Source of the DNA: an uncultured Candidatus Saccharibacteria bacterium
Lineage (GTDB): Bacteria > Patescibacteriota > UBA1384 > CAYGGE01
DNA: 50,256 nt
Assembly: GCA_964349485.1 (NCBI GenBank)
Contig: CAYGGE010000006.1
Coordinates: forward strand, 1 to 50,256
Direction: 5' to 3'
Shown: piece by piece, positions 14,444 to 39,943 of the stretch
How positions within the stretch are numbered: position 1 is the stretch's first letter
Layout of the letters: every line of letters begins with the position of its first letter
Notes under the pieces: model-generated
The model's input: the letters and a program-made list of their open reading frames with translations, nothing else
What the model was told of the DNA's origin: nothing
The model's database searches: none
Position numbers and translations under genes: made by a program

Positions 14444-14474
14444 ACCCCTCCTCGTTATCTATATATCGATAATA

Positions 14475-14490
14475 TATCTGTATACAGATA
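14475..14490. promoter_or_regulatory. Perfect 16-bp palindrome TATCTGTATACAGATA in a divergent intergenic region
   Basis: The sequence equals its own reverse complement. It lies 32 nt upstream of the 79-aa gene start, between that operon and def. Confidence 0.5.
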
Positions 14491-14630
14491 GTTGTCAATA
14501 GGTAGTTTATACATACTTTTTGGCATAGTCGTCACTATCGAGCGTGCTATATATTAAATCTGTAGCAAGCTAACGGCCGTAACAGTAAAAGTCTACAGAT
14601 TATCAGTTCTTTTTTTGGTATAGTGCAGCT

Positions 14631-15251: not shown

Positions 15252-15284
15252 GTATTTTCTGGTATACTTCAAACAAAGGAGATC

Positions 15285-17574: not shown

Positions 17575-17580
17575 CACTCA

Positions 17581-22335: not shown

Positions 22336-22343
22336 GGATACTC

Positions 22344-22685: not shown

Positions 22686-22823
22686 AGATGACCTCCTCCC
22701 CTCCCGGCGGAATGTTCACACATCACGCTTGTTTAGTATGTATATGACTAGTTGTTACTTCAAACCTAGTTGAGGCCTTTTTATCACGTCGGTAAATAAG
22801 CTGTCAAGTGCTTGGTTGGTTAT

Positions 22824-23582: not shown

Positions 23583-23750
23583 ATATAGTTTATACTCTTT
23601 TCGTGCTGTATTGTCAACTATTCTGACAACTATATTAGATTAAACCTATTGACTGATCATATTTAATTATTAATTGAAACTATTTTATGACAAACATGAG
23701 AATAGGAAGTAATATTCCCTGTATCGGGCCTTTCTCGTAGGAGATATATC

Positions 23751-24614: not shown

Positions 24615-24616
24615 CC

Positions 24617-24663
24617 GCCCCCGATAGGAAGCTCCTAGCCTCCGACTGGGGGCTTTCTATTTA
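24617..24663 (+). terminator. Rho-independent terminator candidate after the HExxH gene
   Basis: GCCCCC (24617-24622) pairs with GGGGGC (24648-24653). An inner TAGGA/TCCTA stem is present. TTTCTATTTATT follows. Confidence 0.5.
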
Positions 24664-24751
24664 TTAAGCCTCTTTACTTCAGTTGCCAGGTTATGTTAAA
24701 CCTAGCTCAATAGGAGGGCGATGATACTTTCACTGATAAAGGTAAGTAACT

Positions 24752-27394
24752 ATGTCTTCCGATATTCTCTCTGTCCTTACAACGAGATGGGCTACGCCAG
24801 ATTTTAACCATATTGGGCAGGTTATTTTATCTGCTCTATTTCCAGCGTTTATTGTGGTGTGCGTATTTGTTGGCATTTCACTACTTCTGGCTGTAATTCG
24901 TTACTTTCTAGACAGGAAAAGCTACCCGAAGACATTCTTAGAGCTACGTTTCCCGTCGGATACAGCCAAGTCAGCTTTTGCCACAGAACAACTTTACGTC
25001 TTGCTTCATACGCGCTCAAAACAACAGCGCCTAATCGAAAAACTACTTGGGCCCAAGAAGATTTATTCATTTGAGCTAGTTTCTACGAAAGCTGAGGGTA
25101 TTCGGTATATTGTCAGCGTGCCGCAAAAAGAAGTTGACACCTTTCAGCGCAGCTTGCTCGCATTTTTACCGGGTATTAAAATTCAGGAAGTCGAAGACTA
25201 TGTGCAACCACCGGAAAATAAATCAACCCGCCTCGTTGAGCTAAAGTTGTCGGCGGATTTTGTTTTACCGCTGCAAGACCAGAAAGCCCTCTCCGAACAC
25301 GACCCAATGTCGTACCTCACTGGCCATATGACTAAGCTGGCCTTAAACGAGTTAGTGGCTTTTCAGCTTGTTGTTACGCCGGTATTACCTTCGTTGCATC
25401 GAGGCGTCATGCGACGGATAAGCGAAGTGCGGCAAACGATTTCGCGCGGGCTACCGCTCTCAACCATTCTTAAACCCCGATTTACTTTTGTTCCGGTCGT
25501 AATACAAGTACTGCTCAAGGTAGTGCTGTGGCTAGTTGAGTCAATCGTTAAACTTCTAATCTCTCTACCGTCACTGATCTTTGACCCAAATAGCAAAACT
25601 ATCCCCATCTTCCAAGCGGATAGCAAACAAGCTAAGAAAGACACAGATGATCCGTACGAAACGGAGTTAGGCCAAACTCTCAAAAGTAAGCTAGATCAGC
25701 ACTTGTATGAAACATCACTGCGTATGTTTGTAGTGTCAAATACGCAGGAGGCTGCCCGTTACCGCATCGATGAACTAATAGCCGCATTCCGTCCGTTTGC
25801 CAGCTCAATCCAATCCATCGTTGCTCGGAAGAGTTACTTGTCTTCCGTTCGTCAACAAGTAAAACAGTTTCAGGCGAGGCACTTGTCACAATCTTTGTTT
25901 GTTCAAAATCCGATCCTCTCTAGCTCAGAGCTATCCGACGTCTATCACTTCCCGCATACAAAGACGACTCGAACAGAAGACCTGATTAAATCTAAGAGCC
26001 AGGAACTACCGGCACCGTTGTCGTTAAAGAATAATCATAATCTCGATGTCATATTCGGCGTAAATAATTACGGTAATTCATCAAGCAATGTCGGTCTCAC
26101 AGATGACGACCGCTCGCGCCATATGTACTTAATCGGACAGACGGGCTCAGGTAAATCGACGATTATTTACCACATGGCCAAAGACGATATTGCCAAAGGT
26201 CGTGGCTTAGCGGTAATTGATCCGCACGGTGACTTAGCTGAAGACTTGGTCGCTACCGTACCGGAATCACGAATCGACGATCTGATCTACTTCAACCCAT
26301 TTGATATCAAACATCCAATCGGCGTGAACTTGCTTGAGCTCACGCCGGACTTAGACGAGGATGAATTAGAACTAGAAAAGGAACTTGTCTGCGAGAGTAT
26401 CATCTCGATCTTCCGCCGTGTATTCAACAAAGATGAGAACACCGACGCTCACCGTATTGAATACATTCTCCGTAATACGATCTATACCGCTTTCAATGTG
26501 CCTGACGCCACAATCTTTACCATCTACGACTTACTTAATGATCCGGATATTCGTAAGAAAACCATTCGCACACTAACCGATGAGAATCTCATTAACTTTT
26601 GGAAACAAGAGTTTGGCAAGGCGGGTGGGTATCAAGTCGTAAAGATGGTCAGTGGCGTTACCGCTAAAGTCGGACGATTCTTATTCTCACCAACAGCTAA
26701 GAGAATTCTAGAGCAATCGAAGTCCACAATTAAGTTCGATGAAGTTTTAGATAAAAGTAAGATTCTTATTTGCAATCTAGCTGAAGGCAAGCTCGGCGAA
26801 GATACATCGCAGCTCTTAGGCACAATGATCATAGCTAAGATCCAGCAAGCTGCCATGCGCCGAGCAAGAAACGAACGAGCTACCCGTACGTCGTTCTATC
26901 TTTTCGTTGACGAGTTTCAAAATTTTGCTACCAGCTCGTTTACTAAGCTTCTTTCTGGTGGTCGTAAGTTTGGCTTACGCGTTACTATTGCCGAGCAATC
27001 TACTGCTCAGCAGTCGGATAGAAATACGGTAAACGTTATTCTGGCTAACACTGGTACCGTCGTTTGTTTCCGCACGGCCAGCCCAATTGATGAAGAATTA
27101 ATGCTGTTGCAATTCTCACCACTGGTACAGCCGGGAGATATTGGTAACTTACCTCGCTATCATTTTTATATGCGTTTAGCAGCCATGGAACCGACCGATC
27201 CATTCTCTGGCGAAACCTTGCCGATGAATGCCCCCAAAGATGAGGCAAAGATCGAAAAGTTAGTTGAAGCTTCACGCAGTAATTACGCTATTGTCTACCA
27301 AAAACCTGAACCGAAAGTAGTTGTTCCCGATACGAAACCAAAGGCGAAAAAGGCTATGAAGGTGGCTCAAGAGGCAGTTGATACTCTGCCTTGA
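24752..27394 (+). CDS. VirD4/TraG-type type IV coupling protein
   Basis: N-terminal TM helix. Walker A YLIGQTGSGKST and Walker B FYLFVDEFQNF. 880 aa. Confidence 0.85.
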   Translation: MSSDILSVLTTRWATPDFNHIGQVILSALFPAFIVVCVFVGISLLLAVIRYFLDRKSYPKTFLELRFPSDTAKSAFATEQLYVLLHTRSKQQRLIEKLLGPKKIYSFELVSTKAEGIRYIVSVPQKEVDTFQRSLLAFLPGIKIQEVEDYVQPPENKSTRLVELKLSADFVLPLQDQKALSEHDPMSYLTGHMTKLALNELVAFQLVVTPVLPSLHRGVMRRISEVRQTISRGLPLSTILKPRFTFVPVVIQVLLKVVLWLVESIVKLLISLPSLIFDPNSKTIPIFQADSKQAKKDTDDPYETELGQTLKSKLDQHLYETSLRMFVVSNTQEAARYRIDELIAAFRPFASSIQSIVARKSYLSSVRQQVKQFQARHLSQSLFVQNPILSSSELSDVYHFPHTKTTRTEDLIKSKSQELPAPLSLKNNHNLDVIFGVNNYGNSSSNVGLTDDDRSRHMYLIGQTGSGKSTIIYHMAKDDIAKGRGLAVIDPHGDLAEDLVATVPESRIDDLIYFNPFDIKHPIGVNLLELTPDLDEDELELEKELVCESIISIFRRVFNKDENTDAHRIEYILRNTIYTAFNVPDATIFTIYDLLNDPDIRKKTIRTLTDENLINFWKQEFGKAGGYQVVKMVSGVTAKVGRFLFSPTAKRILEQSKSTIKFDEVLDKSKILICNLAEGKLGEDTSQLLGTMIIAKIQQAAMRRARNERATRTSFYLFVDEFQNFATSSFTKLLSGGRKFGLRVTIAEQSTAQQSDRNTVNVILANTGTVVCFRTASPIDEELMLLQFSPLVQPGDIGNLPRYHFYMRLAAMEPTDPFSGETLPMNAPKDEAKIEKLVEASRSNYAIVYQKPEPKVVVPDTKPKAKKAMKVAQEAVDTLP

Positions 27395-27490
27395 ATGCTA
27401 TCAGCCGTATGATAGTATTTTGCTCACAACTACAGGTTAAACAAATATAATAACGTACGCTTATATTTATATATTATACTTCTCGCTTCT

Positions 27491-28273
27491 ATGCTTATGA
27501 CACAGCTTACTCAAACAACTCTCACATCTCGACAACTCGAAATCTTAATCCTGCTTTACCGCTTCCGCTTTTTAACACGCTCTCATATTCAAACTCTCCT
27601 GCATCACAAGAACCACGCACACATACTCAAATGGCTTAACGAACTAACTTCCCAAAACTACATCACTCAGTACTACACGAAAACCATCCCTGCTTCTCCA
27701 GCCATCTACTCACTAGCCAAACTAGGCCGTACCTATCTCAAAGCCCATACAGACAGTAATACGAAACATCTCAGTCGGTTAAGGAGGGATCCGGTCTATA
27801 CGTCAAAGTTTCGCAGTCACTGTCTCTTTCTGGCTGACATCTATATTTCACTACTTGAGCTGACAGCTAAAACGAAAGCCACCCTACACTTTTCAACCAA
27901 AGCCGAACTCTACGGTATGGAAAGCCTCATTAAGCCAGCGCCGGACGCATACATAGCTATCGAAGAGGCCACAGGAACGACCAAGCGCTACTTTCTTGAT
28001 GTCTTTGATGATATTCCACCCGTAGGCATGCGTAAGCGTGTGAGGCAATATTTCGACTATTACGAAAGCGACGAATGGCAGAGCAGTACCGACAAACCAT
28101 TCCCATCAATAATTCTTGTTTGTCCGAATGAACGAGTGAAGAAACACCTAGGATTTATTATCCGAAGAAAGCTCGAAGATGAATCCAATATGAACTTTTA
28201 CCTTGCGTGCAGTGAAGCTGTTAAGGCAAAAGGTCTTACGGTAGAAACTTTATATAAAGTCTTTTCGGGCTAG
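27491..28273 (+). CDS. Replication-relaxation family protein (putative relaxase/DNA-processing protein)
   Basis: The N-terminus LTSRQLEILILLYRFRFLTRSHIQTLL and the later block PDAYIAIE are typical of the Replic_Relax family. It lies directly downstream of the coupling protein gene. Confidence 0.75.
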   Translation: MLMTQLTQTTLTSRQLEILILLYRFRFLTRSHIQTLLHHKNHAHILKWLNELTSQNYITQYYTKTIPASPAIYSLAKLGRTYLKAHTDSNTKHLSRLRRDPVYTSKFRSHCLFLADIYISLLELTAKTKATLHFSTKAELYGMESLIKPAPDAYIAIEEATGTTKRYFLDVFDDIPPVGMRKRVRQYFDYYESDEWQSSTDKPFPSIILVCPNERVKKHLGFIIRRKLEDESNMNFYLACSEAVKAKGLTVETLYKVFSG

Positions 28274-28279
28274 CCTCCC

Positions 28280-28927
28280 TTGGCTAAACCTGATAATTGT
28301 GGTATATTTTGCGCAGAACGAAAGGAAGGTTTTATGCAGCAGCACACTCAGCTGATTGGTATCGCGGGTGGGAGTTGCAGCGGCAAAACTACCCTCGTTG
28401 AAGAGCTGATCATCCGTCTTGGCGAAAGCCTTGAGGTTATCTCCTTCGACGATTACTTCGTTGGTACCCAAGCCTTAGAAGGCCTGGTCGTGGACGATTG
28501 GGAAAGCCCGACACTTTATCATATGGACCGCTTTGTCGAAGACCTCACCAGTCTCAAAGCTGGTAGAAGTGTGAGAATTGCCTGTCGTTCACGAGAAAGC
28601 GTAGCACGTGGCATTAGTGAACGAGTCGTCGAGCCAAAGCTATTTATTATCGTGGAAGGGTTCCTGATCTTTCACGAGCCAGCCGTCAGACCACTGTTTG
28701 ACCGAAAGTTCTTTACTGACCTGCCTGAAGATGAAATCATCAGGCGCCGGTTAGCACGAATCCAAGGTACAAGCGGTTGGGACGACCAAGGCTACATCAC
28801 GGAAAAACTCATTCCTGGCCATCGACGACTTGTTCTTCCACAGCGGGAGCTTGCCGACGTTGTCTTGGATGGCACTTTAACTACATCACTTCTCGCAGAC
28901 CGAGTCTGCGACCTTCTCAGCACATAA
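28280..28927 (+). CDS. Uridine kinase-like P-loop nucleoside kinase
   Basis: LIGIAGGSCSGKTTL P-loop followed by ISFDDYF. The likely true start is ATG 28334 (MQQHTQ). Confidence 0.7.
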   Translation: MAKPDNCGIFCAERKEGFMQQHTQLIGIAGGSCSGKTTLVEELIIRLGESLEVISFDDYFVGTQALEGLVVDDWESPTLYHMDRFVEDLTSLKAGRSVRIACRSRESVARGISERVVEPKLFIIVEGFLIFHEPAVRPLFDRKFFTDLPEDEIIRRRLARIQGTSGWDDQGYITEKLIPGHRRLVLPQRELADVVLDGTLTTSLLADRVCDLLST

Positions 28928-28937
28928 GGGGGAAACC

Positions 28938-29234
28938 GTGCTCAAGGATAATGCCGCTCTCTGCTGGGCAACCGATGAGCAGCTCGCTCTGCTCGAAGTT
29001 GATTTGCGCGTACATGTTCGCATCATAGATACGCTCTGGGAACCAGCAGTCATCAGAGAACTCTATATCTACGAGGAACTACCGAGTGTGGCAATCGTAG
29101 TTGAGTGCGACAACTTCAAATGGAAGGATGGGAACCTCTATGACGGCCGCGGTGGCGTCATCACGATCAGCCCCGATGGGACTGAACCACTCGGCAACGC
29201 TATCCGCCGCAGTCTAGGTCGTGACGATTTCTAG
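28938..29234 (+). CDS. Hypothetical 98-aa protein
   Basis: GTG-start ORF 10 nt after the kinase gene, with a GGGGGAAA RBS-like run upstream. No motif recognised. Confidence 0.45.
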   Translation: MLKDNAALCWATDEQLALLEVDLRVHVRIIDTLWEPAVIRELYIYEELPSVAIVVECDNFKWKDGNLYDGRGGVITISPDGTEPLGNAIRRSLGRDDF

Positions 29235-29299
29235 ACGTTGGTTGCTCGCTCTATCTCATAACTTTACTGTTGGCTGGATCAGTGGATAAACCAGCACGC

Positions 29300-29328
29300 G
29301 CCGTAGACTAGAAGGTCTGCGGCTTTTT
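29300..29328 (+). terminator. Rho-independent terminator
   Basis: GCCGTAGAC (29300-29308), loop TAGAAG, GTCTGCGGC (29315-23), giving one G:U and eight Watson-Crick pairs, then TTTTT. Confidence 0.7.
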
Positions 29329-29580
29329 AATAATTCTTTAATGCCTCTTAAGTTATACTCGCTACGAAAGGTTCATCATGAGAAGACTATGTCAGTTAAG
29401 TATAGAGGAATTAAAAATCGAGGAACGTACGATAACAGCTCGATTAGAGCGTGATCTCATGGTTATTTCTTGGCTATTAAAAAGGTGTCAGAAGAATCTC
29501 CAACAGTTTCTAAGTGATAATAATGAAAAGTGAAAGAGCTTGGAAACCCGAGGGCTCCCAAGCTCACTTCTTGCTGACGA

Positions 29581-29892
29581 CTAATATTCCTCAGCAAGCA
29601 TCACCGTCATCACCCGACGGCACCTATCTGTCTCCGGATCTTCCCAATGCGTTAGCGACTGATCGTAGTAATCTATCTTCCAAAAGATCTTCTCTCCTTC
29701 CCAAACGATAATGCCGAAATCATGCTCACCGTACGGATCATTCGCTCCGCTGAAATTATCGTACTCGCGTACTGCCTTCATTAACCCATTGATATCCTCC
29801 AGATACTGAACCCCTGTCGTAAACATTACCCCTTGTCCTGACTTCCGAAACACATCGTTCACCCGTGCAATTTGATCAAGTACTGTTTCCAT
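29581..29892 (-). CDS. DUF3768-family protein
   Basis: Hallmark DPYGEHDFG and FWKIDYYD. The tracked GTG start (29949) is unlikely. ATG 29892 is preceded by AGGAGG with a 4-nt spacer. Confidence 0.75.
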   Translation of the reverse strand: METVLDQIARVNDVFRKSGQGVMFTTGVQYLEDINGLMKAVREYDNFSGANDPYGEHDFGIIVWEGEKIFWKIDYYDQSLTHWEDPETDRCRRVMTVMLAEEY

Positions 29893-30125
29893 ATAACCTC
29901 CTAATGTTCTTAATGATCGGGCGTATCGACCTTCCCGCCCTTTGACCACACAGCAAGGAAGGAAGCTGGTCGGGTCAAGGTGGAGCCCTTCCGCTGGAAA
30001 TTTAAAAGAAAAGGGACTACCTTGAGGCGGCCAGACCCTATCCTTATACTGGAAAGACAGGGCGGGAGAACAACTTACCTAGCGCTCATATGGTATTTTC
30101 TCGGTTAAAAGAGTAGAATTAGGGC

Positions 30126-32933
30126 ATGTCATATAGTGAAGCACTAACTAGACAAGAGATCATCGATATTCGACTTAAAAAGGCTGGATGGGATGTTCAT
30201 AATCCTTCTCAGGTTACCTCTGAGTTGGATATTTGGATTGGCTTACCAGAAGGTGTTACGGAACCTCAACATGAGTATCAAGGATATCAATTTGCTGATT
30301 ACGCCTTACTTGACGATAGCGGTTATCCTTTAGCTATCGTTGAAGCTAAAAAGACTTCAAAAGATGCACGTATTGGACAAGAGCAGGCTCGACAATACGC
30401 TGAGAATATTCAGAAGAGTTCCGGCAAATACATGCCGTTTGTCTATTACTCAAACGGACACGATATCTACTTTTGGGACACTGAAAAATCACCACCTCGC
30501 AAGGCATACGGGTTCCCAACCAAACGAGATCTAGAGCGTATGCTTTTCCTGCGAAAGAACGAGAAGCCTCTCTCACAAGAACTGATCAACCGAGAAATTT
30601 CGGGACGTCCTTACCAGATAGAGGCAATTCGCTCAGTCTTTGAGAATCTTGATAAAGGCAAAAGAAAATCGTTACTCGTCATGGCGACTGGTACAGGCAA
30701 AACGAGAACCTGTGTCTCGATGCTCGACGTATTAATGCGTACAAACCATGTGCAACGAGTTCTCTTTCTCGTAGATAGAATCGCCCTGCGCGATCAAGCT
30801 CTGAGTGCCTTTAAAGAGTATCTTCCCAACGCCCCCGTTTGGCCAAAGTCTGGTGAGCAAGAAATTGCAACCGACAGACGCGTATATGTCGCGACATACC
30901 CGACGATGCTCAATATTATCGAGAATAAAGACTGCCCTCTCAGTCCATTCTTTTTCGATATGATTGTGGCTGATGAAAGCCACCGATCAATTTATAATGT
31001 TTATAAAAATATATTTGACTATTTTGATACGATCCAACTTGGCCTAACCGCCACACCCAAAGACGCCCTCGAGCATAATACCTTCGGTCTGTTTGGCTGC
31101 GAAGATGGTATTCCTACCTATGCTTACTCATACGAAGAAGCTGTTAACAACAAACCGCCATATCTCTGCGATTTTGAAGTACTGAAGGTTCGTACTAAGT
31201 TTCAGAAAGAAGGTATTAGGAAAGATAATATTTCACTTGCTGAACAGCAAAAGCTTCTCGCAGATGGCAAAGAGCCGACTGAAATTAACTACGAAGGTAG
31301 TGAGATCGAGAAAAAGGTCACGAACAAAGGGACTAATGCCCTTATCGTTCAAGAGTTCATGGAAGAATGCATTAAGGACGAGAGCGGAACCTTGCCTGGA
31401 AAAACGATCTTCTTTGCTATGACGATGAAGCATGCACGAAGAATACAAGAAGTATTTGATGATCTGTATCCTGAACACAAAGGCACTATCGCCAAAGTGA
31501 TTGTTTCTGATGATTCTCGAGTTTATGGAAAAGGCGGATTGCTCGATCAGTTCGTCAACCAAGACTTCCCTCGCATCGCCATTAGCGTTGACATGCTTGA
31601 TACAGGCATCGACGTTAGAGAATTAGTAAACCTTGTCTTTGCTAAGCCAGTCTTTTCGTATACCAAGTTCTGGCAAATGATTGGACGTGGTACGCGATTG
31701 CTTGAATCCAAAAAGTTAAAGCCGTGGTGTAAAGAAAAAGACAAATTCTTGATTATCGACTGCTGGGAAAACTTCGAGTACTTCGGTATGAATCCCAAGG
31801 GCAAGATTGATCAGCCGTCAAAGCCTATTTCGGTTCGAATTTTTGAAGCAAAGATTCAGAAACTTTTTCTTGCAGGATCACAAAATAACTCCTTACTTAG
31901 CCAGAAAATCATCGAGAAGCTACAAATAGATATTGAGAAACTACCTCAAAACAACGTGGTTGTTTTAGACGCGCAGAGCAAACTCGACAAACTCAACGAT
32001 ACGTTCTGGCAAAGACTGACCGAAGATAAAAAGTTGTTTCTCGAAAAAGAGATTGCTCCACTCATGCGTACTCGCACCGGTGAAGATTTTAAGGCAATGA
32101 GTTTTGAGCTCAAGGTTTTAAATTACTCCCTCGCAAAGCTCGAAGGGCAGACTGAAGAAACCAAGATTCAGACTCTCGAAGAAGCCATGATAGAAATGGT
32201 TTCTGATCTTCCTCTCTCAGTAAATATTGTTGCCAAAGAAAAGGTATTGATCGAAGAAGTGTTAAATAATCATTACATCGCAAGCGCAGATGAAGACGCT
32301 CTCGACCTCCTAATTCAATCAATCGCTCCGCTAATGAAATATCGGGAAGAAGGCATTAAGCCCGATCAAACATCTTTGAACTTGCGTGATATTACGAGCG
32401 AGAAAGAATATATTAAATTCGGCCCCGAGAATGAGCGAATCACAATTCACAAGTATCGAGAAAAAGTAGAAGCGCTCGTTAAACGACTCGAAACTGAAAA
32501 TGATATTTTGTCACGAATCAAAAGCGGAGAGCAAATCAGCCAAGCAGAGGTTGAAGCGCTAGCAAACACTCTTTCCGGATACGAACCATACCCAACTGAG
32601 GAGAACCTTCAAAGGGCTTATGATGCCCGGAAAGTTAGTTTCTTGGATTTAATAAAATACATTATGGGAATCGGTGGGTTAGTCACATTCTCGGAAAAAG
32701 TTTCCGAGTCATTTGCGGAGTTTATCGCTGAACACAACACGTTAACCTCTCAGCAAATACAATTCCTCATCGTGTTGCGTGACTTCATTATCGATAACGG
32801 CGACCTTACTAAGCGAGATCTTGTGAGCGAACCGTTCACAAAGCTTCATGCTCGTGGGTTCTTAGGAATCTTTACTCCACAAATGCAGCAAGAAATTTTA
32901 CAGTTTACAAACAGGATACTGCAACATGCTTAA
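30126..32933 (+). CDS. hsdR: Type I restriction enzyme R subunit
   Basis: N-terminal nuclease region. Helicase motifs LLVMATGTGKT, MIVADESHR and LGLTATP. EcoEI-R-type C-terminal domain. Confidence 0.93.
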   Translation: MSYSEALTRQEIIDIRLKKAGWDVHNPSQVTSELDIWIGLPEGVTEPQHEYQGYQFADYALLDDSGYPLAIVEAKKTSKDARIGQEQARQYAENIQKSSGKYMPFVYYSNGHDIYFWDTEKSPPRKAYGFPTKRDLERMLFLRKNEKPLSQELINREISGRPYQIEAIRSVFENLDKGKRKSLLVMATGTGKTRTCVSMLDVLMRTNHVQRVLFLVDRIALRDQALSAFKEYLPNAPVWPKSGEQEIATDRRVYVATYPTMLNIIENKDCPLSPFFFDMIVADESHRSIYNVYKNIFDYFDTIQLGLTATPKDALEHNTFGLFGCEDGIPTYAYSYEEAVNNKPPYLCDFEVLKVRTKFQKEGIRKDNISLAEQQKLLADGKEPTEINYEGSEIEKKVTNKGTNALIVQEFMEECIKDESGTLPGKTIFFAMTMKHARRIQEVFDDLYPEHKGTIAKVIVSDDSRVYGKGGLLDQFVNQDFPRIAISVDMLDTGIDVRELVNLVFAKPVFSYTKFWQMIGRGTRLLESKKLKPWCKEKDKFLIIDCWENFEYFGMNPKGKIDQPSKPISVRIFEAKIQKLFLAGSQNNSLLSQKIIEKLQIDIEKLPQNNVVVLDAQSKLDKLNDTFWQRLTEDKKLFLEKEIAPLMRTRTGEDFKAMSFELKVLNYSLAKLEGQTEETKIQTLEEAMIEMVSDLPLSVNIVAKEKVLIEEVLNNHYIASADEDALDLLIQSIAPLMKYREEGIKPDQTSLNLRDITSEKEYIKFGPENERITIHKYREKVEALVKRLETENDILSRIKSGEQISQAEVEALANTLSGYEPYPTEENLQRAYDARKVSFLDLIKYIMGIGGLVTFSEKVSESFAEFIAEHNTLTSQQIQFLIVLRDFIIDNGDLTKRDLVSEPFTKLHARGFLGIFTPQMQQEILQFTNRILQHA

Positions 32934-34443
32934 TACCACTCTTAAGTCATCAATCAATAAGCTCTGGGACAAGTTCTGGAGTGGTGGTATTTCTAACCCA
33001 CTCACAGCTATTGATCAGATTTCCTATTTGCTTTTTATGAAGCGGCTTGATGAGCTCGATACCAAAAAGAGACACGATGCAGCATTCACTGGAGAGACAT
33101 ATGTTTCTCCCTTTGCGGGTGAAAACGAGAGGATGCGTTGGAGTTATTTCCGCCAGCTAGAGGGTGGCGAAATGCTATCGCATATCCAGACTAGAGTCTT
33201 TCCTTTTCTCAAAACCCTTGGGAAAGAAGAAAGTCCCTTCGCCAAGCACATGGGAAACGCAGTATTTATTATCTCTAAGCCGTCACTCTTAGTTGAGGCT
33301 GTAGGTATTATCGATGACATTTTCACCGAGATCGAAAAGCAAGAATCCCATGGACAAGGCTTCCAGGACACTCAAGGTGACCTTTATGAATATTTATTAT
33401 CTGAGATCACGAGTGCTGGTAAGCTGGGGCAATTTCGCACACCTCGTCACATCATCCAGCTTATGTGCGAACTTGTTGACCCAAAGCTTGGTGACACCAT
33501 TTGTGACCCCGCATGCGGTACCGGTGGCTTCCTATTAGGAGCCTATCAACACATCATTACAGCGTATACGAGTAACGAACACCGTATAACCGACGACAAC
33601 GGTTTAACCCGTGGACTCCTAGGCGACAAATTAACTGACGAAAGACAATGGACACAGTTAAAAGAAAAAACGTTCTACGGCTATGACATGGACGAAAGCA
33701 TGGTACGAATCGGCCTAATGAACCTTATGATGCACGGCATTTCGACTCCTAATATCGAGCAAAAAGATACGCTGTCCAAGAAATATGACGACGACAACTA
33801 TTACGATTGTATTCTTGCCAACCCACCTTTCAAAGGAAGCATTGATAAGGGCGACATCAACGAATCACTTTCGCTTCCAACAACGAAAACAGAACTTTTA
33901 TTTTTAAACAGAATCATTAAGTCTCTTAAAATCGGTGGCAGAGCCGGAGTAATCGTTCCTGACGGCGTTCTATTTGGCTCTAGTAATGCCCACAAACAAG
34001 CACGCCAGATGCTTCTCAACGATTGTGAACTTCAAGGGGTGATCTCTTTGCCTAGTGGTGTCTTTAAGCCTTACGCTGGAGTAAGTACCGCTATTCTCAT
34101 CTTTGTAAAAGGCGGTGAAACAGAGAAAGTATGGTTTTACGATATGCAAGCTGATGGCTATACGCTGGATGATAAACGCACTAAAATAAGCTCAACGGAT
34201 CTGCCTGATATTGTAGAGAAGTGGCAAGCCAGAAAAGAGCAAGCCGATAACAATCGAGGGTGTAAATTCTTCTCGGTTGATAAGATAGAAATAGAAGAAG
34301 CAGGGTTTGATTTCAGCATTAAGCGCTATAAAGATATAGAACATGCAAAAGTAGATTACGAAAGCTCAGAACTTGTCTTGCAAAAGATTAATATATTAGA
34401 ACAAGTAATTATTACTGGTTTATCAGATTTAGAAGAAATTTAA
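32926..34443 (+). CDS. hsdM: Type I R-M N6-adenine DNA methyltransferase subunit
   Basis: HsdM N-terminal block LWDKFWSGGISNP, AdoMet motif DPACGTGGFL and catalytic NPPF. 8-nt overlap with hsdR. Confidence 0.93.
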   Translation: MLNTTLKSSINKLWDKFWSGGISNPLTAIDQISYLLFMKRLDELDTKKRHDAAFTGETYVSPFAGENERMRWSYFRQLEGGEMLSHIQTRVFPFLKTLGKEESPFAKHMGNAVFIISKPSLLVEAVGIIDDIFTEIEKQESHGQGFQDTQGDLYEYLLSEITSAGKLGQFRTPRHIIQLMCELVDPKLGDTICDPACGTGGFLLGAYQHIITAYTSNEHRITDDNGLTRGLLGDKLTDERQWTQLKEKTFYGYDMDESMVRIGLMNLMMHGISTPNIEQKDTLSKKYDDDNYYDCILANPPFKGSIDKGDINESLSLPTTKTELLFLNRIIKSLKIGGRAGVIVPDGVLFGSSNAHKQARQMLLNDCELQGVISLPSGVFKPYAGVSTAILIFVKGGETEKVWFYDMQADGYTLDDKRTKISSTDLPDIVEKWQARKEQADNNRGCKFFSVDKIEIEEAGFDFSIKRYKDIEHAKVDYESSELVLQKINILEQVIITGLSDLEEI

Positions 34444-34445
34444 TT

Positions 34446-35585
34446 ATGAATTTAGTTGAGCTAGGAAAAGTAGCAGAATTTATTAATGGCTATGCTTTTA
34501 AGCCTTCCAGTTGGTCTTCAGAGGGTATGAAAATAATTCGAATCCAGAACTTAACAAACCCTAGTAAGTCATATAACAGAACAAAGCAAGTAGTTCAAGA
34601 AAGATATAGGGTTCGGAAGGGTGATATTTTAGTGTCTTGGTCAGCGACTCTTGGGGTTTTTGAGTGGGAAGACCAAGAAGATGCATTGCTAAATCAGCAC
34701 ATATTCAAAGTACAGCTAGATTCAACGGTTGTTGATAAACAATACTTTAAGTACGTACTACGATACTCGATCGAAAAAATGGCTCAATTTACACATGGTT
34801 CAACCATGAAACATATTGTTAGACGTGATTTCTTGAACCACCAAATTCCGCTTCCGTCTCTCGAGGACCAGAAGAATATTGTGAAAGTGATAGAGCTGGC
34901 AGAAAGCTTGCTTACGAAACGCAAGAAATCAATTGCATTACTTGATAATTATTTAAAATCAGTCTTTTTGGATATCTTTGGAGACCCAGTAAAGAATCCT
35001 ATTGGATGGAAGACTGAAAAGCTTGGAAATGTTGCAAGTAAAATAACTGACGGAACACATAAAACTCCCGTATACACTAAGGATGGAGTGAAGTTTATCT
35101 CAGCTAAAAATATTAAAGCGGAAGAAGTCACATGGAAAGATATAAAGTTTATATCACAAGTGGAGCATGATAGTCTTTATCAGAGATGTAACCCTGAACG
35201 CAACGATTTGCTTTTAACGAAAAGTGGCAGCTTAGGAATGGTTGCGTTGGTAGATGTTGATTTTGAATTTAGTCTATTCGAAAGTGTTGCCTTAATAAAA
35301 GTAAACCAAAAACTAATCGACCCCATTTTTCTCCGTGAGTATCTTAATTTAAAAGAAATAAAATCTTTTTACTCACAGAGAACCAAGGGGATAGGTGTTA
35401 AACACTTACATTTAGTAGATATCAAATCGTTACCAGTACTTTTGCCACCAATAACTGACCAGCAGAGGTTCGCACGATTAGTTCAGAAGGTTAAAACGCT
35501 AAAGCAGAAAATGTTTGCTCAGTCGTATGCAATGGAAATTCAGCTCCAGTCTTTAATGCAAAAATCGTTTACTTCGGAATTATAG
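34446..35585 (+). CDS. hsdS: Type I R-M specificity subunit (two TRDs)
   Basis: Two target-recognition halves separated by conserved helices (LPSLEDQKNIVKVIE... and LPPITDQQRFARLVQKV...). 2-nt gap after hsdM. Confidence 0.9.
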   Translation: MNLVELGKVAEFINGYAFKPSSWSSEGMKIIRIQNLTNPSKSYNRTKQVVQERYRVRKGDILVSWSATLGVFEWEDQEDALLNQHIFKVQLDSTVVDKQYFKYVLRYSIEKMAQFTHGSTMKHIVRRDFLNHQIPLPSLEDQKNIVKVIELAESLLTKRKKSIALLDNYLKSVFLDIFGDPVKNPIGWKTEKLGNVASKITDGTHKTPVYTKDGVKFISAKNIKAEEVTWKDIKFISQVEHDSLYQRCNPERNDLLLTKSGSLGMVALVDVDFEFSLFESVALIKVNQKLIDPIFLREYLNLKEIKSFYSQRTKGIGVKHLHLVDIKSLPVLLPPITDQQRFARLVQKVKTLKQKMFAQSYAMEIQLQSLMQKSFTSEL

Positions 35586-35690
35586 ACAACCACACTTCAA
35601 TTCTAATTACTTTTCTTTCACGTTTCATTTCTAGTCTGACCCAAGGGATTAAGTCCAGGCTGTTTCTCGATCTCTGTCGAGCAGAAAAAC

Positions 35691-35924
35691 CTAATTAGAA
35701 AGTGCTTGCTTCATCTCTCTTATTTGGTTCTCTCCAAGTTCGATTATTGCACCGGCACAAATCACACAATAGTTACGCCTTGCTCGCGATGCTGTATCGA
35801 CTACGACCAGACAAGGTTGCCCCATAGTAATACTATGGACGTTTGGCTTATGGTAGCATTTTCGCCGAGCCGATGCCGTTTCTACTAGTACATGTTTTAG
35901 AATGTTCTTAGTTTGTGCCATCAT
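35691..35924 (-). CDS. Small 77-aa Cys/His-containing protein, last gene of the PLD-helicase operon
   Basis: Overlaps the helicase gene's 3' end by 17 nt. Contains C-x-H, C and a CVIC (CxxC) motif, which may form a zinc-binding fold. No family recognised. Confidence 0.5.
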   Translation of the reverse strand: MMAQTKNILKHVLVETASARRKCYHKPNVHSITMGQPCLVVVDTASRARRNYCVICAGAIIELGENQIREMKQALSN

Positions 35925-38001
35925 CGCTCCTTATTGCAAGCTTAATGCGTCTCGCCACTCCATCCCCAACCTGGTCAAGTGATTTATAGGCGAGTTCAAG
36001 CTGCTCAGCAGTCCATTTCTCTCTTGTGTCCAGGTCTTGTCCCACGAGCTCGTTGATTTGATTGTTTAGGAATGAGAATAGAGCATCCGCATTATTACCC
36101 CTTACTCCAGGTACTGCCCTTGAGATATCGTAACCAGCGCGTGATAAGCCAAGGTCTGCGAGAATCCGATTGTGAATGCTTTTCGAGCGTTCGTCGAGTC
36201 GTTTGCGAAGTATCTGACGATGCACCTGAGGCTGTACAGGTGACGGTGTAGCGGGTGCTTCTTTACGGGTATTTCTGGCTGCATGCATCTCTCGAAGTTT
36301 TTCAGGTGTAATACCTAATTCTCTGAGCGTAAAGCCACCTGGGGCCTTAGAATCAAGTAATCTGTCTATCACCGTATCGTCTTCTGGGTCTAGATAGGCT
36401 TGTGATAAGAAATGACTTAATATTTCTTTATCAGCTAGCGGCTGATTGTCGTACCTGTGAGCTTCTTGCTCTCCGTCTTCTTTAGTTCTAGAAGTGCCAC
36501 CACTAGCCCCTGACCCGCGCGCCCAAACCTTAACAAGCTCCTGGTCTTGAGCGTCTAGCTCTCTAAAGTCATCCCAGCGGTCCTCGTTGTTTAATCCAAT
36601 ATGGGATACGATATACGCTTGATTATTAGGATGGTCCGCAGCGTTTGGCTCTACTGTTCTCATGACGCGACCTACAAACTGAATATATGGAGCCAAGGAT
36701 CGGTAGGGCTTAAATATGGCTGCAACGCTTAGCGGTGGGTGATCAAAGCCTTCCCCAAGCATAGCCACTTGAACGATACAATCGAGCTGACCACTTCTCA
36801 GTTTGCTAAAAATTGTCTCCTTACGATCATCTGGCATCTCTCCGTAAATTTCCGCAGCTTGAAGCCCCATTTCCTCATATATCGCTCTGACTTGGCGAGC
36901 GTGGTCAACAGACATCGCTGAAGCGATTATCTGGTGAGGGAAACCGGTATGTGCTCGTAACTCCTGCATCTTTTCTACGCTTTTTTCAGCAATGTGGCGA
37001 TTACACTCTTCCGAAAGGGCTACGCCACGTCGAAACCACGCTTGCTCCTTAAGTGCCAGTACCTCTTCAAGGCTAAAGCTTCTACTTTCGTCTTTAACGC
37101 TGAAACTAATCTCTGTTGGTCGGGCGGACGCAGAAGAAACGTGTTTAATGTATCCATTAATCATTGCTAGTGAGAAAGGGTAATGATAAATAAGAGTACC
37201 AACCAGATCTTGATTGTCTGATCGGAATGGTGTCGCGGTCATGCTTACAAAGCGTGCACCAGGGAAAGCTCTAATTACCCGTTGCCAGCTTTCGGCGGCA
37301 ACATGGTGTCCCTCGTCAATTATTATGAGATCGAAGAAGTCCGATGGAAACTGTGAAAGCCAACGGTCAGCTCTACTCGCCAGCTGTTGAATGTTTGCTA
37401 CTACGATATGGCTCTTTGAGCAGTCGTCAATATTCGCCTTGGGGCCGTCTACGAGTGCAGTGAATGGTCCTTTTGAGAAATCGGTGAGTACGTTAGCTTT
37501 TTTCCAAAAGCAACCAGTATTAGAAATGTTAAGGTCAGCGTAGAGCCCAGTCCGAATAGTTTTATTCGGCGCCACAATAAGTACCCTGCCGTTTGATAAT
37601 CCAAAAGGTAGTATTGCAGCGAGGCCTGTCTTGCCGCACCCAACGGGAAGTTGGATGATAGCAGGCTCGGTTGATTTTTCGAAGTGAGTGACTGCGGCAT
37701 CGAATGCTTCCTGTTGTGGTTCGCGAAGATATGGGTTCTTGTTTATCTTTGGATCTGCTTCCGAAAAATAGCCCGCAATGTTACTGGCGTTCATTCCTGC
37801 GTGTCCAAACTCAAGTCGGAACTGTTCAAGGTCGGCTATCTTGTAGTATCGGTAGTCGCTACCGGGGCGTTTTGTTGCGATTAGTTTACCTGCATCATCC
37901 CAACGTCGAAGAGTGGCCGCTGAGACTCCGACGAACTCAGCTGCTTGAGCAACCGTTAGAAAATCAAGTTCTTTTTCATCTTTCATGAATCTACCATACA
38001 A
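35908..38001 (-). CDS. SF2 (DEAD/DEAH, ResIII-like) helicase with N-terminal MerR/excisionase-type HTH
   Basis: HTH LTVAQAAEFVGVSAATLRRWDDAGKL. Q motif LREPQQEAF. Motif I PVGCGKTG, II IIIDEGHH, III MTATPFR, V LGEGFDHP, VI QFVGRVMR. Start is TTG 38001 or ATG 37986. Confidence 0.88.
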   Translation of the reverse strand: MYGRFMKDEKELDFLTVAQAAEFVGVSAATLRRWDDAGKLIATKRPGSDYRYYKIADLEQFRLEFGHAGMNASNIAGYFSEADPKINKNPYLREPQQEAFDAAVTHFEKSTEPAIIQLPVGCGKTGLAAILPFGLSNGRVLIVAPNKTIRTGLYADLNISNTGCFWKKANVLTDFSKGPFTALVDGPKANIDDCSKSHIVVANIQQLASRADRWLSQFPSDFFDLIIIDEGHHVAAESWQRVIRAFPGARFVSMTATPFRSDNQDLVGTLIYHYPFSLAMINGYIKHVSSASARPTEISFSVKDESRSFSLEEVLALKEQAWFRRGVALSEECNRHIAEKSVEKMQELRAHTGFPHQIIASAMSVDHARQVRAIYEEMGLQAAEIYGEMPDDRKETIFSKLRSGQLDCIVQVAMLGEGFDHPPLSVAAIFKPYRSLAPYIQFVGRVMRTVEPNAADHPNNQAYIVSHIGLNNEDRWDDFRELDAQDQELVKVWARGSGASGGTSRTKEDGEQEAHRYDNQPLADKEILSHFLSQAYLDPEDDTVIDRLLDSKAPGGFTLRELGITPEKLREMHAARNTRKEAPATPSPVQPQVHRQILRKRLDERSKSIHNRILADLGLSRAGYDISRAVPGVRGNNADALFSFLNNQINELVGQDLDTREKWTAEQLELAYKSLDQVGDGVARRIKLAIRSDDGTN

Positions 38002-38094
38002 CGTTTAACAACGTTATGCAACCCAATCTTTTTCAGCCGGTGAGTAGGTTTTTACATTTGTTTTACATAGTTGACGGGTTAAATTGGCTCAAAG

Positions 38095-38754
38095 CTAAAG
38101 AGCGCGGTGTTCTTCTCCAGTTAATTTAGAGACCGTCAGATCTAGGGCTTGGCGAACCGCATCGTGCAACATAGCGTCTTTTATTCGTTCACCACGTTTT
38201 CGCTTGTTGGTATAAAGGATAAGGTCGTCTAGACATTCCTCGAGTGAGCTTTCGAGACCTACCTCGTACCATAGTTTTCTCGTTAAGAATGGGATGACTT
38301 GCTCAAGCTGTTCGTCAGTAAGCGTTACATCATAGTGCGTCTTGAGTAACTCGACGGTCTTCACGGATACTGTAGGTTCGAAAGGCACTGGTCGATGCTC
38401 TACGAGAATACCGCGTATCTCAGCGGCTACTCGTTGTTTTTCTTTCATCGGCACAAGAGCCAGAAGAGATGTTGCATGATTACGAAGGTCTGATCGAGAC
38501 AAGCTCTGACTGCCAGATTGCTCTAATAAATCTCGTAAATCATCGAGCTGCTCTTCTCTGAACTGCCGAGGTGAATCTGATTTTGCGCTAGCTTTTTGCC
38601 ACCATTCAAGCTCTTTAATCAACGTAACTAGCCGTCCTGTTTCAGTATCAGGCATAACAATATCGTACTTATCTTTGATAAGCTTCTTGGTCTGTATAAT
38701 CTCTAATTCAGTAGGCTCAGAAAAATCTGAGTTAAGTAGGGATGAGTTATCCAT
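38095..38754 (-). CDS. Hypothetical acidic 219-aa protein, possible two-repeat architecture
   Basis: 7-nt gap after the PLD gene. No known motif. Residues about 22-52 and 131-161 look related (KLIKDKYDIVMPD...LEWW and ELLKTHYDVTLTD...KLWY). Confidence 0.55.
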   Translation of the reverse strand: MDNSSLLNSDFSEPTELEIIQTKKLIKDKYDIVMPDTETGRLVTLIKELEWWQKASAKSDSPRQFREEQLDDLRDLLEQSGSQSLSRSDLRNHATSLLALVPMKEKQRVAAEIRGILVEHRPVPFEPTVSVKTVELLKTHYDVTLTDEQLEQVIPFLTRKLWYEVGLESSLEECLDDLILYTNKRKRGERIKDAMLHDAVRQALDLTVSKLTGEEHRAL

Positions 38755-38761
38755 AGCACTC

Positions 38762-39436
38762 CTAGTGAGGCGTGTTTGCTGTCAGTATTTCTACCCACTG
38801 CATAACAACTTTCAAAGGTATAATATCCAATAAAGCGATAAATAGCCACCATATCACCATTACAGATAACCAGCACAGTACAATTGTACGTAGGATACTT
38901 CGTCGCCTGGGTCGCGCAGTCCTGCTAAAAGCTCGGCCGACTTGGTTGTGTTTCGCACTTAATCCTTCCGCTAGCATGTCGCTAAGCCGAAGGTGACGAA
39001 TAACTTCCACAGTCGAATCCTTATCGGTTATACGGCGCATCATCTCTCGGCTGGACCGTTGCGAAAGGATGTTCAAACTCCCTTCCCAAAGTATTTCCCG
39101 GTCGATAATGGCTACTTTTTCATGAATATAACCGCTAAGGTAATAAATGGTTGCGCCCGTTTCTTCATACTGACCAAGGATGTCCGTGATTTCGCTACGT
39201 TGACCCGGAGCATACTCACGAAGTGGGCGGGTAAAGATAAAGACGTTGATATTGGTGTCTTTAAGTTTGTGCATTAGGCGAAGAAACGTATCAGCGCGGT
39301 GTTTAGAGACAAACGGGCTATAAATAATAATCTCTTCTTTTGCCTTTAACATGTCATTGGCTAGGGCGGAATAGAAAGAAGTTTGATTATAGAGTTTACT
39401 CGTGACGGTATTTTTCTTGTGATTATTAGCTAACAT
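38762..39436 (-). CDS. PLD-superfamily (single HKD) nuclease-like protein with C-terminal TM helix
   Basis: HKD motif HEKVAIIDREILWEGSLN (HxK-x4-D-x6-GSxN). C-terminal hydrophobic segment ILRTIVLCWLSVMVIWWLFIALL. Confidence 0.85.
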   Translation of the reverse strand: MLANNHKKNTVTSKLYNQTSFYSALANDMLKAKEEIIIYSPFVSKHRADTFLRLMHKLKDTNINVFIFTRPLREYAPGQRSEITDILGQYEETGATIYYLSGYIHEKVAIIDREILWEGSLNILSQRSSREMMRRITDKDSTVEVIRHLRLSDMLAEGLSAKHNQVGRAFSRTARPRRRSILRTIVLCWLSVMVIWWLFIALLDIIPLKVVMQWVEILTANTPH

Positions 39437-39489
39437 ATTGCTCCTTAGACCATTTTACCTTAATTGATCTGTAATTCTGAGTAGCGAGT

Positions 39490-39498
39490 TGGTATAAT
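39490..39498 (+). promoter_or_regulatory. Extended -10 promoter (TGgTATAAT) for the XRE gene, predicting a leaderless mRNA
   Basis: TATAAT at 39493-39498 with TG at 39490-39491. The ATG lies at 39507, only 8 nt downstream, and no Shine-Dalgarno is possible. Confidence 0.5.
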
Positions 39499-39506
39499 GT
39501 CGGTAT

Positions 39507-39722
39507 ATGGATAATGAAAAAGACCAAAAAGCTCGCAATAAACTTGGCGCAATACTTAAAGAGGCTCGCTTGAAAGCGGGTCTTACTCAAGCTGAAGTTG
39601 CCGCCAAGGCTAAAGTAAACGCAAATTATTATGCGATTGTTGAACGTGGAGAAGGAACCTACTCCTTCGCTAATTTGCAACGAATAATGAAGGTACTTCA
39701 TATTAAGTCCTTAGACTTATAA
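39507..39722 (+). CDS. XRE-family HTH transcriptional regulator (71 aa)
   Basis: HTH_3 pattern LGAILKEARLKAGLTQAEVAAKAKVNANYYAIVERGE. Divergent from the PLD-helicase operon. Confidence 0.85.
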   Translation: MDNEKDQKARNKLGAILKEARLKAGLTQAEVAAKAKVNANYYAIVERGEGTYSFANLQRIMKVLHIKSLDL

Positions 39723-39943
39723 GAATCAGGGCGCGCTTCGTCGTCCTGTTGTTCTTTATAGATTTTCTCTAATTTAGGCTTCCACTCAATTACGTACTCG
39801 AGAAAGGTGTTCCAAAAAATACCGCTAGGGTCCACCAAATTGTTTTTTAACTTGTTGATATATTCCTCCAACCTGAAAGGAAGGCTTATATTGGGTGTTC
39901 CAAAACCATTTTTAAGCGAGTATTTTGGGTTTTCTGACACCAC
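39698..39943 (-). pseudogene. Recombinase 3'-end fragment, or an alternative recombinase C-terminal segment
   Basis: Encodes NPKYSLKNGFGTPNISLPFRLEEYINKLKNNLVD, homologous to the recombinase C-terminal region. There is no homology upstream of codon 5. The frame continues for 43 more codons into the island. Confidence 0.6.
39829..39936 (+). repeat. Right direct repeat (attR-like)
   Basis: 94/108 identical to 12705-12812 at a constant offset of 27124. Contains the tRNA-Ala 3' terminal 9-mer GGTCCACCA. Confidence 0.85.

Follow-up and report, generated by a model that had tools for sequence, protein, structure and literature searches.

A large serine recombinase gene that very probably spans its own attachment site in a conjugative element inserted in a tRNA-Ala gene

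Integrase genes extending across their own attachment site (attP) have been recorded for the phage Mx8 and for SSV (PMC4383910). Integration is described as giving the int gene of Mx8 a new 3' end without inactivating it and as shifting its site preferences (PMC6070905), and SSV-type integration as dividing the integrase gene into two separated parts (PMC7253208). For serine integrases, it was stated in 2014 that they are not known to target tRNA genes (PMC4383910), and a review on mobilisable elements describes serine recombinases as inserting within genes using very short repeats (PMC5704250). Here, we report on an integrative conjugative element (ICE) and its large serine recombinase (LSR) in a stretch of 50,256 nucleotides from an uncultured Candidatus Saccharibacteria bacterium (assembly GCA_964349485.1, contig CAYGGE010000006.1, positions 1 to 50,256; the window in the following). 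It is highly probable that attP of this element lies inside the LSR gene, that integration swaps the C-terminus of the enzyme and excision restores its native tail, and that a long repeat flanking the element is incidental. To our knowledge, the known large serine integrases insert in protein-coding genes or intergenic sites, the canonical genes do not span attP, and the direction of the reaction is set by a separate recombination directionality factor (RDF).

The LSR gene of the integrated element, i.e. its attL form, is located at 12649..14235 on the minus strand and was recognised by Pfam and by its homologues. Its open reading frame (ORF) is free of stop codons through ...NPKYSLINGFGTPNISLPFRLEEYINMSNSNLVD and then continues as RRRLELLTPSMPWKCSTN up to the stop, a replacement tail encoded by the target (12649..12705, minus strand), as deduced from the translation and from equivalents in homologues. 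The final 18 codons are antisense to the tRNA-Ala(GGC) gene which serves as integration target and forms attL together with the recombinase-gene side. A first-pass annotation of the window, made from the letters alone, had already described the frame as crossing the repeat and running antisense through tRNA-Ala, which was confirmed by translation; the positions it gave for the tRNA (12649-12704) are those of the overlap with the ORF, and the whole gene extends over 12638..12713 on the plus strand according to ARAGORN. It had also described the right repeat as coding for the same peptide in the same orientation, followed by 43 open codons. The translation bears this out with a homologous peptide: the right-hand ORF (39698-39943, minus strand) reads VVSENPKYSLKNGFGTPNISLPFRLEEYINKLKNNLVD-PSGIFWNTFLEYVIEWKPKLEKIYKEQQDDEARPDSYKSKDLI up to the stop, with the peptide ending in NLVD before the 43 open codons. 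The latter (PSGIFWNTFLEYVIEWKPKLEKIY...DLI and stop; 39698..39829, minus strand; P arm side of attR) represent the detached native C-terminal tail of the recombinase, as indicated by a tail-specific hidden Markov model (HMM), by alignment and by the ratio of nonsynonymous to synonymous changes (pN/pS).

The search with the LSR yielded 1906 homologues, mostly from Patescibacteria metagenomes. Their C-termini, available for about 105 of them, are alike up to a poorly conserved stretch ending in L-V-D/E and then fall into two classes. About 90 of the approximately 105 end in antisense reading of tRNA or tmRNA genes (tDNA), with termini such as PTGFEPATSSVQMRRSTN or VAGVAPASKRLKTYxLQV, and at least 11 diverged full-length homologues, about 10% (P0032, P0038, P0071, P0075, P0076, P0080, P0082, P0096, P0108, P0115 and, added later, P0134 and P0124) continue as xxxxxWNTFxxxxxEWxPxLxxIY. 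The 43-codon tail of the window aligns column for column with these fused tails, both tryptophans being invariant, and across more than 40 diverged tails the residues W, N, F, W, P, L and I/V-Y are conserved at helical spacing. The question raised before, which of the two tails is conserved among homologues, is answered in favour of the PSGIFWNTF-type tail, the alternative tails varying as antisense tRNA or tmRNA. An HMM trained only on tails contiguous with LSR homologues from elsewhere matched the window segment 39701-40087 (minus strand) at E=1e-14 and 50 bits, with a runner-up at E=0.89 among the 1445 six-frame segments, which supersedes the earlier estimate that 43 stop-free codons have a chance of roughly 10% of occurring at random. 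The pN/pS values of the tail, calculated from few substitutions between the window and the loci L011 and L012, are 0.12-0.31 and hold without the eight codons overlapping the adjacent gene; on these small counts, sequence comparison indicates purifying selection on the tail codons at the protein level. That adjacent gene (39507..39722, plus strand) codes for an Xre-type protein of 71 amino acids (Pfam HTH_3, E=8.5e-10), is convergent with the tail ORF and overlaps its last 25 nt, and the same layout occurs in L001, L012 and 17 GTDB loci. AlphaFold models residues 507-537 of the fused-tail homologue P0038 as a helix behind a disordered linker matching the core, with pLDDT values of 44-53 and no confident docking.

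Both configurations of the gene are found in homologous loci. As checked in the DNA, recombinase P0029 terminates antisense within a tRNA-Ala(tgc) gene (L009) and P0067 within a tmRNA gene (L007; Rfam, 135.6 bits), while the tRNA search found none in the tail-bearing loci L001 (P0038) and L003-L005 (P0071). The gene order of L001 consists of a small ORF, the tail-bearing recombinase, a convergent gene for a 71-aa HTH_3 protein overlapping the tail end, and a PLDc_2 gene. The window has the small ORF and the recombinase at the left end of the island, and the tail, the convergent HTH_3 gene and a PLDc_2 gene (38762-39436, by Pfam) at the right end. The arrangement of L001 therefore equals that of the window island with its ends joined, and the fused-tail gene is what circularisation would rebuild. 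L003 likewise has the order small ORF, tail-bearing LSR, convergent HTH_3 gene and PLDc_2 gene. Sequence conservation extends to both the small ORF and the HTH protein in the tail-bearing loci and the window. The previous proposal that circularisation would rebuild the gene with the second tail is thus upheld by the gene order and the fused-tail homologues, except that the crossover is to be placed in a short core and not in the whole repeat. Its corollary that the C-terminus depends on the integration state gains support from the two tail classes and from the loci that combine a lack of tRNA genes with joined-end order, as far as can be judged from sequence. To look for the same arrangement in related elements at other sites had also been recommended, and homologues at other tRNA-Ala genes, tmRNA genes and further tDNAs end antisense. 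Separately, coinciding contig ends of L003 and L004 were considered as evidence for a circle and rejected, because they sit at an insertion sequence and represent an assembly break.

The shared core of the attachment sites is contained in an exactly identical block, GGTCCACCAAATTG, which in attL (12705..12718) represents the final 9 nt of the tRNA gene plus 5 nt and in attR occupies 39829..39842; its first nine bases are the 3' end of the tRNA, including the encoded CCA. attL and attR of the window part directly after TGGTGGACC on the tRNA/tail side. A protein search with the 81-aa right-hand ORF gave only two proteins, P0122 (L011) and P0121 (L012). The junction in L011 is of the attR type; its tail and that of the window are 89% identical, the other flank is unrelated, terminator-containing sequence without an LSR remnant, and the locus shares just GGTCCACCAAA (11 bp) with the att sites of the window. 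L012 contains an attP-like junction, in which the tail and HTH module, with 87-89% identity to that of the window, is joined out of frame to a different LSR (26% identity to the window LSR), and the similarity to the window starts exactly at TGGTGGAC. The distant recombinase of L012 (positions 1-1529) ends in MVYGGR and a stop three codons past TGGTGGAC, and the tail ORF there has its own ATG at the core; this hybrid suggests that modules were exchanged between different elements by recombination at a common core.

All breakpoints of L011, L012 and the window attL/attR meet at TGGTGGAC, which is the 3' end of the tDNA, GTCCACCA, read in antisense; this places the attP core inside the LSR gene and makes the C-terminus a function of the integration state. 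From these sequences, we infer that the crossover occurs within an 8-11 bp core, GTCCACCA(AA), and that the exchange would be the canonical 2-bp crossover of serine recombinases. The conserved L-V-D/E of the homologues is explained by the core itself, because it encodes xTG GTG GAx; in a few homologues the core is read in the other two frames (YGGAGG..., CCGGPK...). The P arm of the window beside the core (CCTAGCGGTAT) agrees with the tRNA-Ala(UGC) gene of L009, in its acceptor and T stem, at 19 of 20 positions from the core, which fits a resemblance of P and B half-sites to each other. As a side observation, the attP P arm CCGCTAGGGTCCACCA (window 39818-39842 compared to L009 11508-11530) is closer to tRNA-Ala(UGC) than to the occupied tRNA-Ala(GGC) gene, and the present site may be a secondary target.

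The long repeat extends well beyond the core and comprises 112 bp with 87% identity (12701-12812 vs. 39825-39936), the exact 14-bp block included. To its left copy (12701..12812, found by repeat search), the resident recombinase gene contributes its 3' end, which is the P' arm side, and the tRNA gene its end; beyond the core block, the right copy (39843..39936, minus strand) consists of about 31 codons (NPKYSLKNGFGTPNISLPFRLEEYINKLKNN) and supplies the B' side of attR. The coding part differs from the resident gene at 12 positions in 102 nt, mostly synonymously (pS 0.35, pN 0.06), and the copies therefore diverged as functional genes in separate elements rather than by duplication at integration. 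Judged by this substitution pattern, the 112-bp repeat stems from a second, related LSR gene of which a truncated 3' end is left, either a scar or a tandem partner, and is no att identity, so the earlier caveat that so long a repeat is atypical and its right copy perhaps a scar was well placed. By analogy to L013, in which a tmRNA gene is followed by a degenerate recombinase 3' remnant of about 230 bp without any recombinase gene, the tRNA-Ala gene of the window was probably in a similar state before the present element arrived. In an equivalent reading with equal consequences for the sequence, remnant and tail together form the 3' end, still intact, of a tandem partner that has lost its upstream part by deletion.

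For comparison, we scanned the GTDB representative genomes for the pattern TGGTGGA, any 16 nt, TGGAAYACNTTY, any 18 nt, TGG. This yielded 42 tail modules in 34 genomes, all Patescibacteria with the exception of one Gemmataceae genome (L024); four of 38 loci, three from Bryobacterales and one from a Planctomycetia member, were discarded as chance or unrelated matches. LSR-coding sequence within 300 nt upstream of a tail was present only in two contiguous full-length genes (L022 at 3804, and L024). About 38 of the scanned modules represent attR-type junctions, typically with terminator-like sequence as the other flank, and an LSR remnant was present at one of the approximately 39 attR junctions examined. 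The recombinase of the Gemmataceae metagenome-assembled genome (MAG) L024 (1242-2765) is full-length and carries an in-frame WNTF-type tail (LVDQIRISWNTFEPVIQDW...), which extends the fused-tail form beyond Patescibacteria into the Planctomycetota. Other loci (L022 3804-7116, L036 3539-6912, L033, L049, L041) contain two or three intact tail ORFs spaced by 0.7-1.4 kb next to a tmRNA or tRNA-Ala gene, with no recombinase between the tails; L019 and L051 are single mini-elements of about 1 kb, the latter with only a 185-aa ORF. The tDNA-proximal end of the arrays and mini-elements has a terminator hairpin near-identical to that beyond attR. Decay of tandem insertions could have produced them, or they could be non-autonomous and depend on mobilisation in trans; repeated use of one tDNA followed by decay appears to be common.

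In the proposed mechanism, the gene of the unintegrated element would continue for about 30-45 codons past the core, coding for a conserved amphipathic helix (W-N-T-F-x5-E-W-x-P-x-L-x2-I-Y) and ending convergent with the Xre-type HTH gene. Integration would cut within the core, upon which the LSR gene at attL would read into the tRNA in antisense, gaining an unrelated tail of 18 residues, and the native tail would be stranded 27 kb away at attR; excision would return it. The junctions predicted upon excision are attP with ...AATATGTCAAATAGCAATTTGGTGGACCCTAGCGGTATTTTTTGGAAC... and a restored attB with ...GAGTCTCCTACGGTCCACCAAATTGTTTTTTAACTTG.... The tRNA gene would already have borne about 100 bp left over from a related LSR gene, namely from its 3' end, or a tandem arrangement with a relative would later have been deleted; either event would account for the similarity of the attR B' side to the attL P' side.

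Several observations weigh against this mechanism. Junctions between LSR and tail, such as those on the contigs with tail-bearing LSR genes, can form not only in circles but also between tandem elements, as in the L022 array with its order LSR-tail-tail-tail-tmRNA. Neither an excised circle nor an empty site of the window element was found in exact-junction scans of the metagenome and genome collections. The predicted tail helix is of low confidence, the tail pN/pS is based on few substitutions, and about 5% of the homologues pass the core in a different reading frame. A lone tail ORF exists in L012 and in several mini-elements devoid of an LSR gene, often with an NTG codon at the core, and might work as a separate peptide. 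Taken further, this last point leads to the alternative that the WNTF tail is a gene of its own for a peptide of about 40 amino acids, starting at the core NTG and continuous with the LSR frame only by accident. This would agree with the tail ORF of L012, which has its own ATG out of frame with the adjacent unrelated LSR, with the intact tail ORFs of LSR-less mini-elements and arrays, and with the codon before VD/VE: as it stands for L, M or V, it almost invariably has the form NTG and could in many cases serve as a start. We nevertheless regard it as unlikely: the in-frame fusion is stop-free in at least 11 diverged homologues plus L022 and L024, about 90-95% of the family, including proteobacterial members at 40% identity, keep the fusion phase, compared to one third expected without constraint (shared ancestry inflates this figure), and a conserved upstream ribosome-binding site is impossible because that flank is host DNA.

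Another alternative would take the repeat of about 110 bp as the functional att identity, as in the tRNA islands of tyrosine integrases, with homologous or site-specific exchange anywhere within it and a long duplication of the recombinase 3' end as a regular trait of the family. The 87% identical repeat of the window, the 40-100 bp of similar sequence flanking the tDNA-nearest element downstream of the core in L022, L036, L051 and L019, and the fact that homologous recombination in the 33-bp identical block of the window would circularise the element as well are in line with it. It is made very unlikely by the attR of the close relative L011 with its mere 11 bp in common with the window att sites, by the mostly synonymous repeat differences, which point to divergence as functional genes in different elements, and by the GTDB tail matches, just 2 of 46 of which have LSR-coding sequence within 300 nt upstream, both in contiguous full LSR genes; the extended flanks of the arrays are accounted for by tandem copies of related mini-elements. 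That the 43 open codons are chance or decaying junk and the natural end of the protein is the tRNA-antisense stop or a stop near LVD is hardly credible. Although such an open stretch alone is not rare and the AlphaFold confidence for the tail is low, this explanation has to face the HMM match of the window, the W/N/F/W/P/L pattern kept in more than 40 sequences and a tail dN/dS well below 1. Moreover, a conserved functional end cannot be formed by the tDNA-derived tails, since these differ from one target gene to the next (Ala, Thr, Leu, Arg, Tyr, Met, Lys, tmRNA).

The exchange of C-termini by integration thus remains our preferred reading, and it raises the question of what the native tail does. 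Because the tail is conserved, is absent from the enzyme in the integrated state, and the element must excise for transfer, its function should belong to the unintegrated state and be dispensable for excision. By analogy to Mx8 IntP/IntX, the two isoforms would differ in direction preference or activity; plausibly, the tail-bearing form is tuned for integration, with the tail-less form still able to excise. Integration also exchanges the convergent, overlapping HTH gene for a convergent tRNA gene, which may alter LSR expression. As a tentative extension which may well fail, the exchange of tails could be a built-in directionality switch of a serine integrase. The circular element would then make the LSR with the WNTF helix, favouring or permitting only integration of attP into the tDNA, and the integrated LSR with an arbitrary tDNA-encoded tail would be competent for excision between attL and attR, possibly together with the product of the small 79-aa ORF. 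If true, recombination would rewrite its own enzyme and set the direction without a classical, separately regulated RDF, and occupied tDNA sites would be reusable, which would explain the tandem arrays in other genomes.

The window enzyme is a large serine recombinase by all criteria that could be checked. It probably starts with the ATG at 14223 (MENEY...) and then comprises 524 amino acids, of which residues 1-510, with every recognised domain, are retained in the integrated ORF. Its Resolvase domain (PF00239, E=3.1e-22, residues 12-160) contains the serine nucleophile motif ALIYCRVSSDKQ; the Recombinase domain (PF07508, 19.8 vs. a cut-off of 21.1 bits) and the zinc ribbon (PF13408, 21.3 vs. 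25.3 bits) remain just under threshold and are annotated in most of its homologues. The closest solved structures are the catalytic domain of TP901-1 (3bvp, E=4.6e-9) and, for residues 239-326, the C-terminal domain of A118 integrase (4kis), and the AlphaFold 2 model of homologue P0038 shows long helices (334-429) beyond the zinc ribbon. The 79-aa ORF overlapping the recombinase start (14204..14443, minus strand) occurs at the same position in L001, L004, L007 and L009 and is kept in integrated and unintegrated relatives with the motif E-C..Y...LSD..I..IRNNLVGIVD. It gave no Pfam match and is a candidate for an accessory protein, regulator or RDF.

The body of the ICE (14444..39506) was delimited by Pfam and codes for a VirB4-like ATPase (P-loop_TraG/AAA_10), PrgI, T4SS_pilin, Peptidase_M23, a TrwB/TraG-type coupling protein and a Replic_Relax relaxase, in addition to a type I restriction-modification system, a helicase, a PLD-family nuclease and metabolic cargo. 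A type IV secretion system, coupling protein, relaxase and integrase, the set defining an ICE, are thus present between att sites, with the LSR at one end and the 14-bp cores at 12705 and 39829. As in the islands defined by Islander, the intact tDNA (12638-12713) is accompanied by its displaced last 9 nt (plus 5 nt) at 39829-39842, a fragment far shorter than in typical tyrosine-integrase islands. The segment from about 12714 to 39828 is an ICE of a Berkelbacteria-like member of the Patescibacteria, which its own LSR set into tRNA-Ala(GGC) at the 3' end of the gene. The cargo next to the recombinase (14631-17574) consists of genes for a peptide deformylase, a RibD_C/DHFR-like reductase, an aldehyde dehydrogenase and a HIT hydrolase, i.e. 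housekeeping-type genes riding on a conjugative element of a reduced-genome bacterium.

An empty-site search starting from the left flanking gene, whose product is 81% identical to a protein from a Candidatus Berkelbacteria MAG, led to this one relative (L006). It contains a tRNA-Ala(GGC) gene, and was rejected as an empty site because its downstream genes are unrelated to the right flank of the window. In L006 (2456-2670), this tRNA gene is followed by a terminator and a second TGGTCCACCA 123 bp downstream, which may represent a further footprint or indicate that a different island occupies this site. When the metagenome and genome collections were scanned with a degenerate 31-mer for attB, attP, attL and attR, there were zero matches; the source genome is evidently in neither of them. 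Elsewhere in the window, the 3' end of a tRNA-Val gene (71-147) is repeated 121 bp downstream (117-147 vs. 238-279) as a 32-nt block, CGAATCCCTCAACGTCCACCA.AGACATTTTA, with 97% identity and a degenerate T-arm ahead of the second copy. In appearance, this duplicate is a footprint of the att type or what is left, in miniature, of a further element inserted in a tDNA, and the 100 bp between the copies contain no recognisable recombinase end and no WNTF tail.

A profile scan of the GTDB representative genomes returned at least 481 relatives of the window LSR, and those listed include cultured Rhodobacteraceae, other Proteobacteria, a Melainabacteria MAG and an Oceanobacillus. In the best 80 loci, 51 of the 76 complete ORFs end antisense in a tDNA detected by ARAGORN, with tRNA-Ala (cgc, ggc, tgc), Thr, Leu, Arg, Tyr, Met, Lys and tmRNA genes as targets. 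Inspected by eye, the CCA antisense (TGG) at their C-termini is nearly always in one codon phase (LV-, MV-, MA-) with few exceptions; with this conserved phase, the attP form can continue in frame, although the count is raised by common descent. Relatives of about 40% identity in cultured Alphaproteobacteria and other phyla (L077-L131, including L077 of Sinisalibacter aestuarii, L079 of Thioclava marina and L086 of Roseovarius marisflavi) also read antisense into many tDNAs; these many specificities indicate that the core varies with the target as the CCA phase stays, and native tails were not identified there. A search for both element ends in 80 LSR loci with 10-kb flanks gave only ambiguous 12-mer repeats (L088, L089, L094, L109). 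The layout of a gene spanning its own attachment site recurs in hundreds of related recombinases.

Targeting of the CCA end of tRNA and tmRNA genes by a large LSR clade contradicts the published generalisation on serine integrases quoted above (PMC4383910). In a literature search of limited coverage, serine integrases with tRNA or tmRNA genes as targets, or with a gene spanning attP in this way, were not found described, nor any among the papers on conjugative elements of Patescibacteria (CPR). Mobile elements of this group are poorly known, and a main integration system of its conjugative elements is hereby identified. The tail exchange also offers a testable hypothesis for directionality without a classical directionality factor. 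Serine integrases are widely used in genome engineering, and enzymes recognising conserved tRNA 3' ends and equipped with a C-terminal module that can be removed could prove useful in practice.

In its domain structure, the enzyme resembles the integrases of phiC31, Bxb1, TP901-1 and A118/LI as well as SPbeta SprA, sharing the Resolvase domain, the recombinase domain and the zinc ribbon with a long coiled-coil insertion, and the att sites of its family share a short core like those of canonical large serine integrases. In contrast to these, it targets the CCA end of tRNA or tmRNA genes, changes its own C-terminus, and continues beyond the zinc ribbon with an extra helical domain (approximately 436-497) and the tail helix. 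A C-terminal module covalently attached to a serine integrase is also known from engineered integrase-RDF fusions (Olorunniji et al. 2017, PMC5737554), in which it switches the pair of att sites that is recombined. These fusions are artificial and the module is a known RDF, whereas the natural exchange of the helix in the window family comes from recombination itself and its role is putative. The likeness to SSV-type integrases proposed in the first-pass annotation applies to the location of attP inside the integrase ORF and to the tRNA target; in contrast to these tyrosine recombinases with their split gene, the catalytic and DNA-binding domains stay in one ORF here and only the last approximately 40 residues are exchanged.

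Mx8, whose target is a tRNA-Asp gene, carries the small gene uoi directly upstream of int. This position is reminiscent of that of the 79-aa ORF in the window. Mx8 IntP/IntX is the closest precedent (Tojo et al. 1996; Magrini et al. 1999, via PMC6070905 and PMC4383910) and a nearer one than SSV, since the enzyme remains active after the replacement of its C-terminus: attP lies in the 3' part of the integrase gene, and the recombinant gene that results from integration codes for a different C-terminus. The Mx8 Int is a tyrosine recombinase with an arm-type attP, and the serine recombinase of the window is therefore its analogue and not a member of the same kind. The change of activity was measured for Mx8 and is inferred for the window family, and the trait of a single phage is here that of a family present in hundreds of conjugative or mobilisable elements across phyla. 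The idea of a recombinase editing its own gene is thereby extended from one phage with a tyrosine integrase to serine integrases at family scale, and the known kinds are extended by a large serine recombinase that works like Mx8 Int in editing its own C-terminus.

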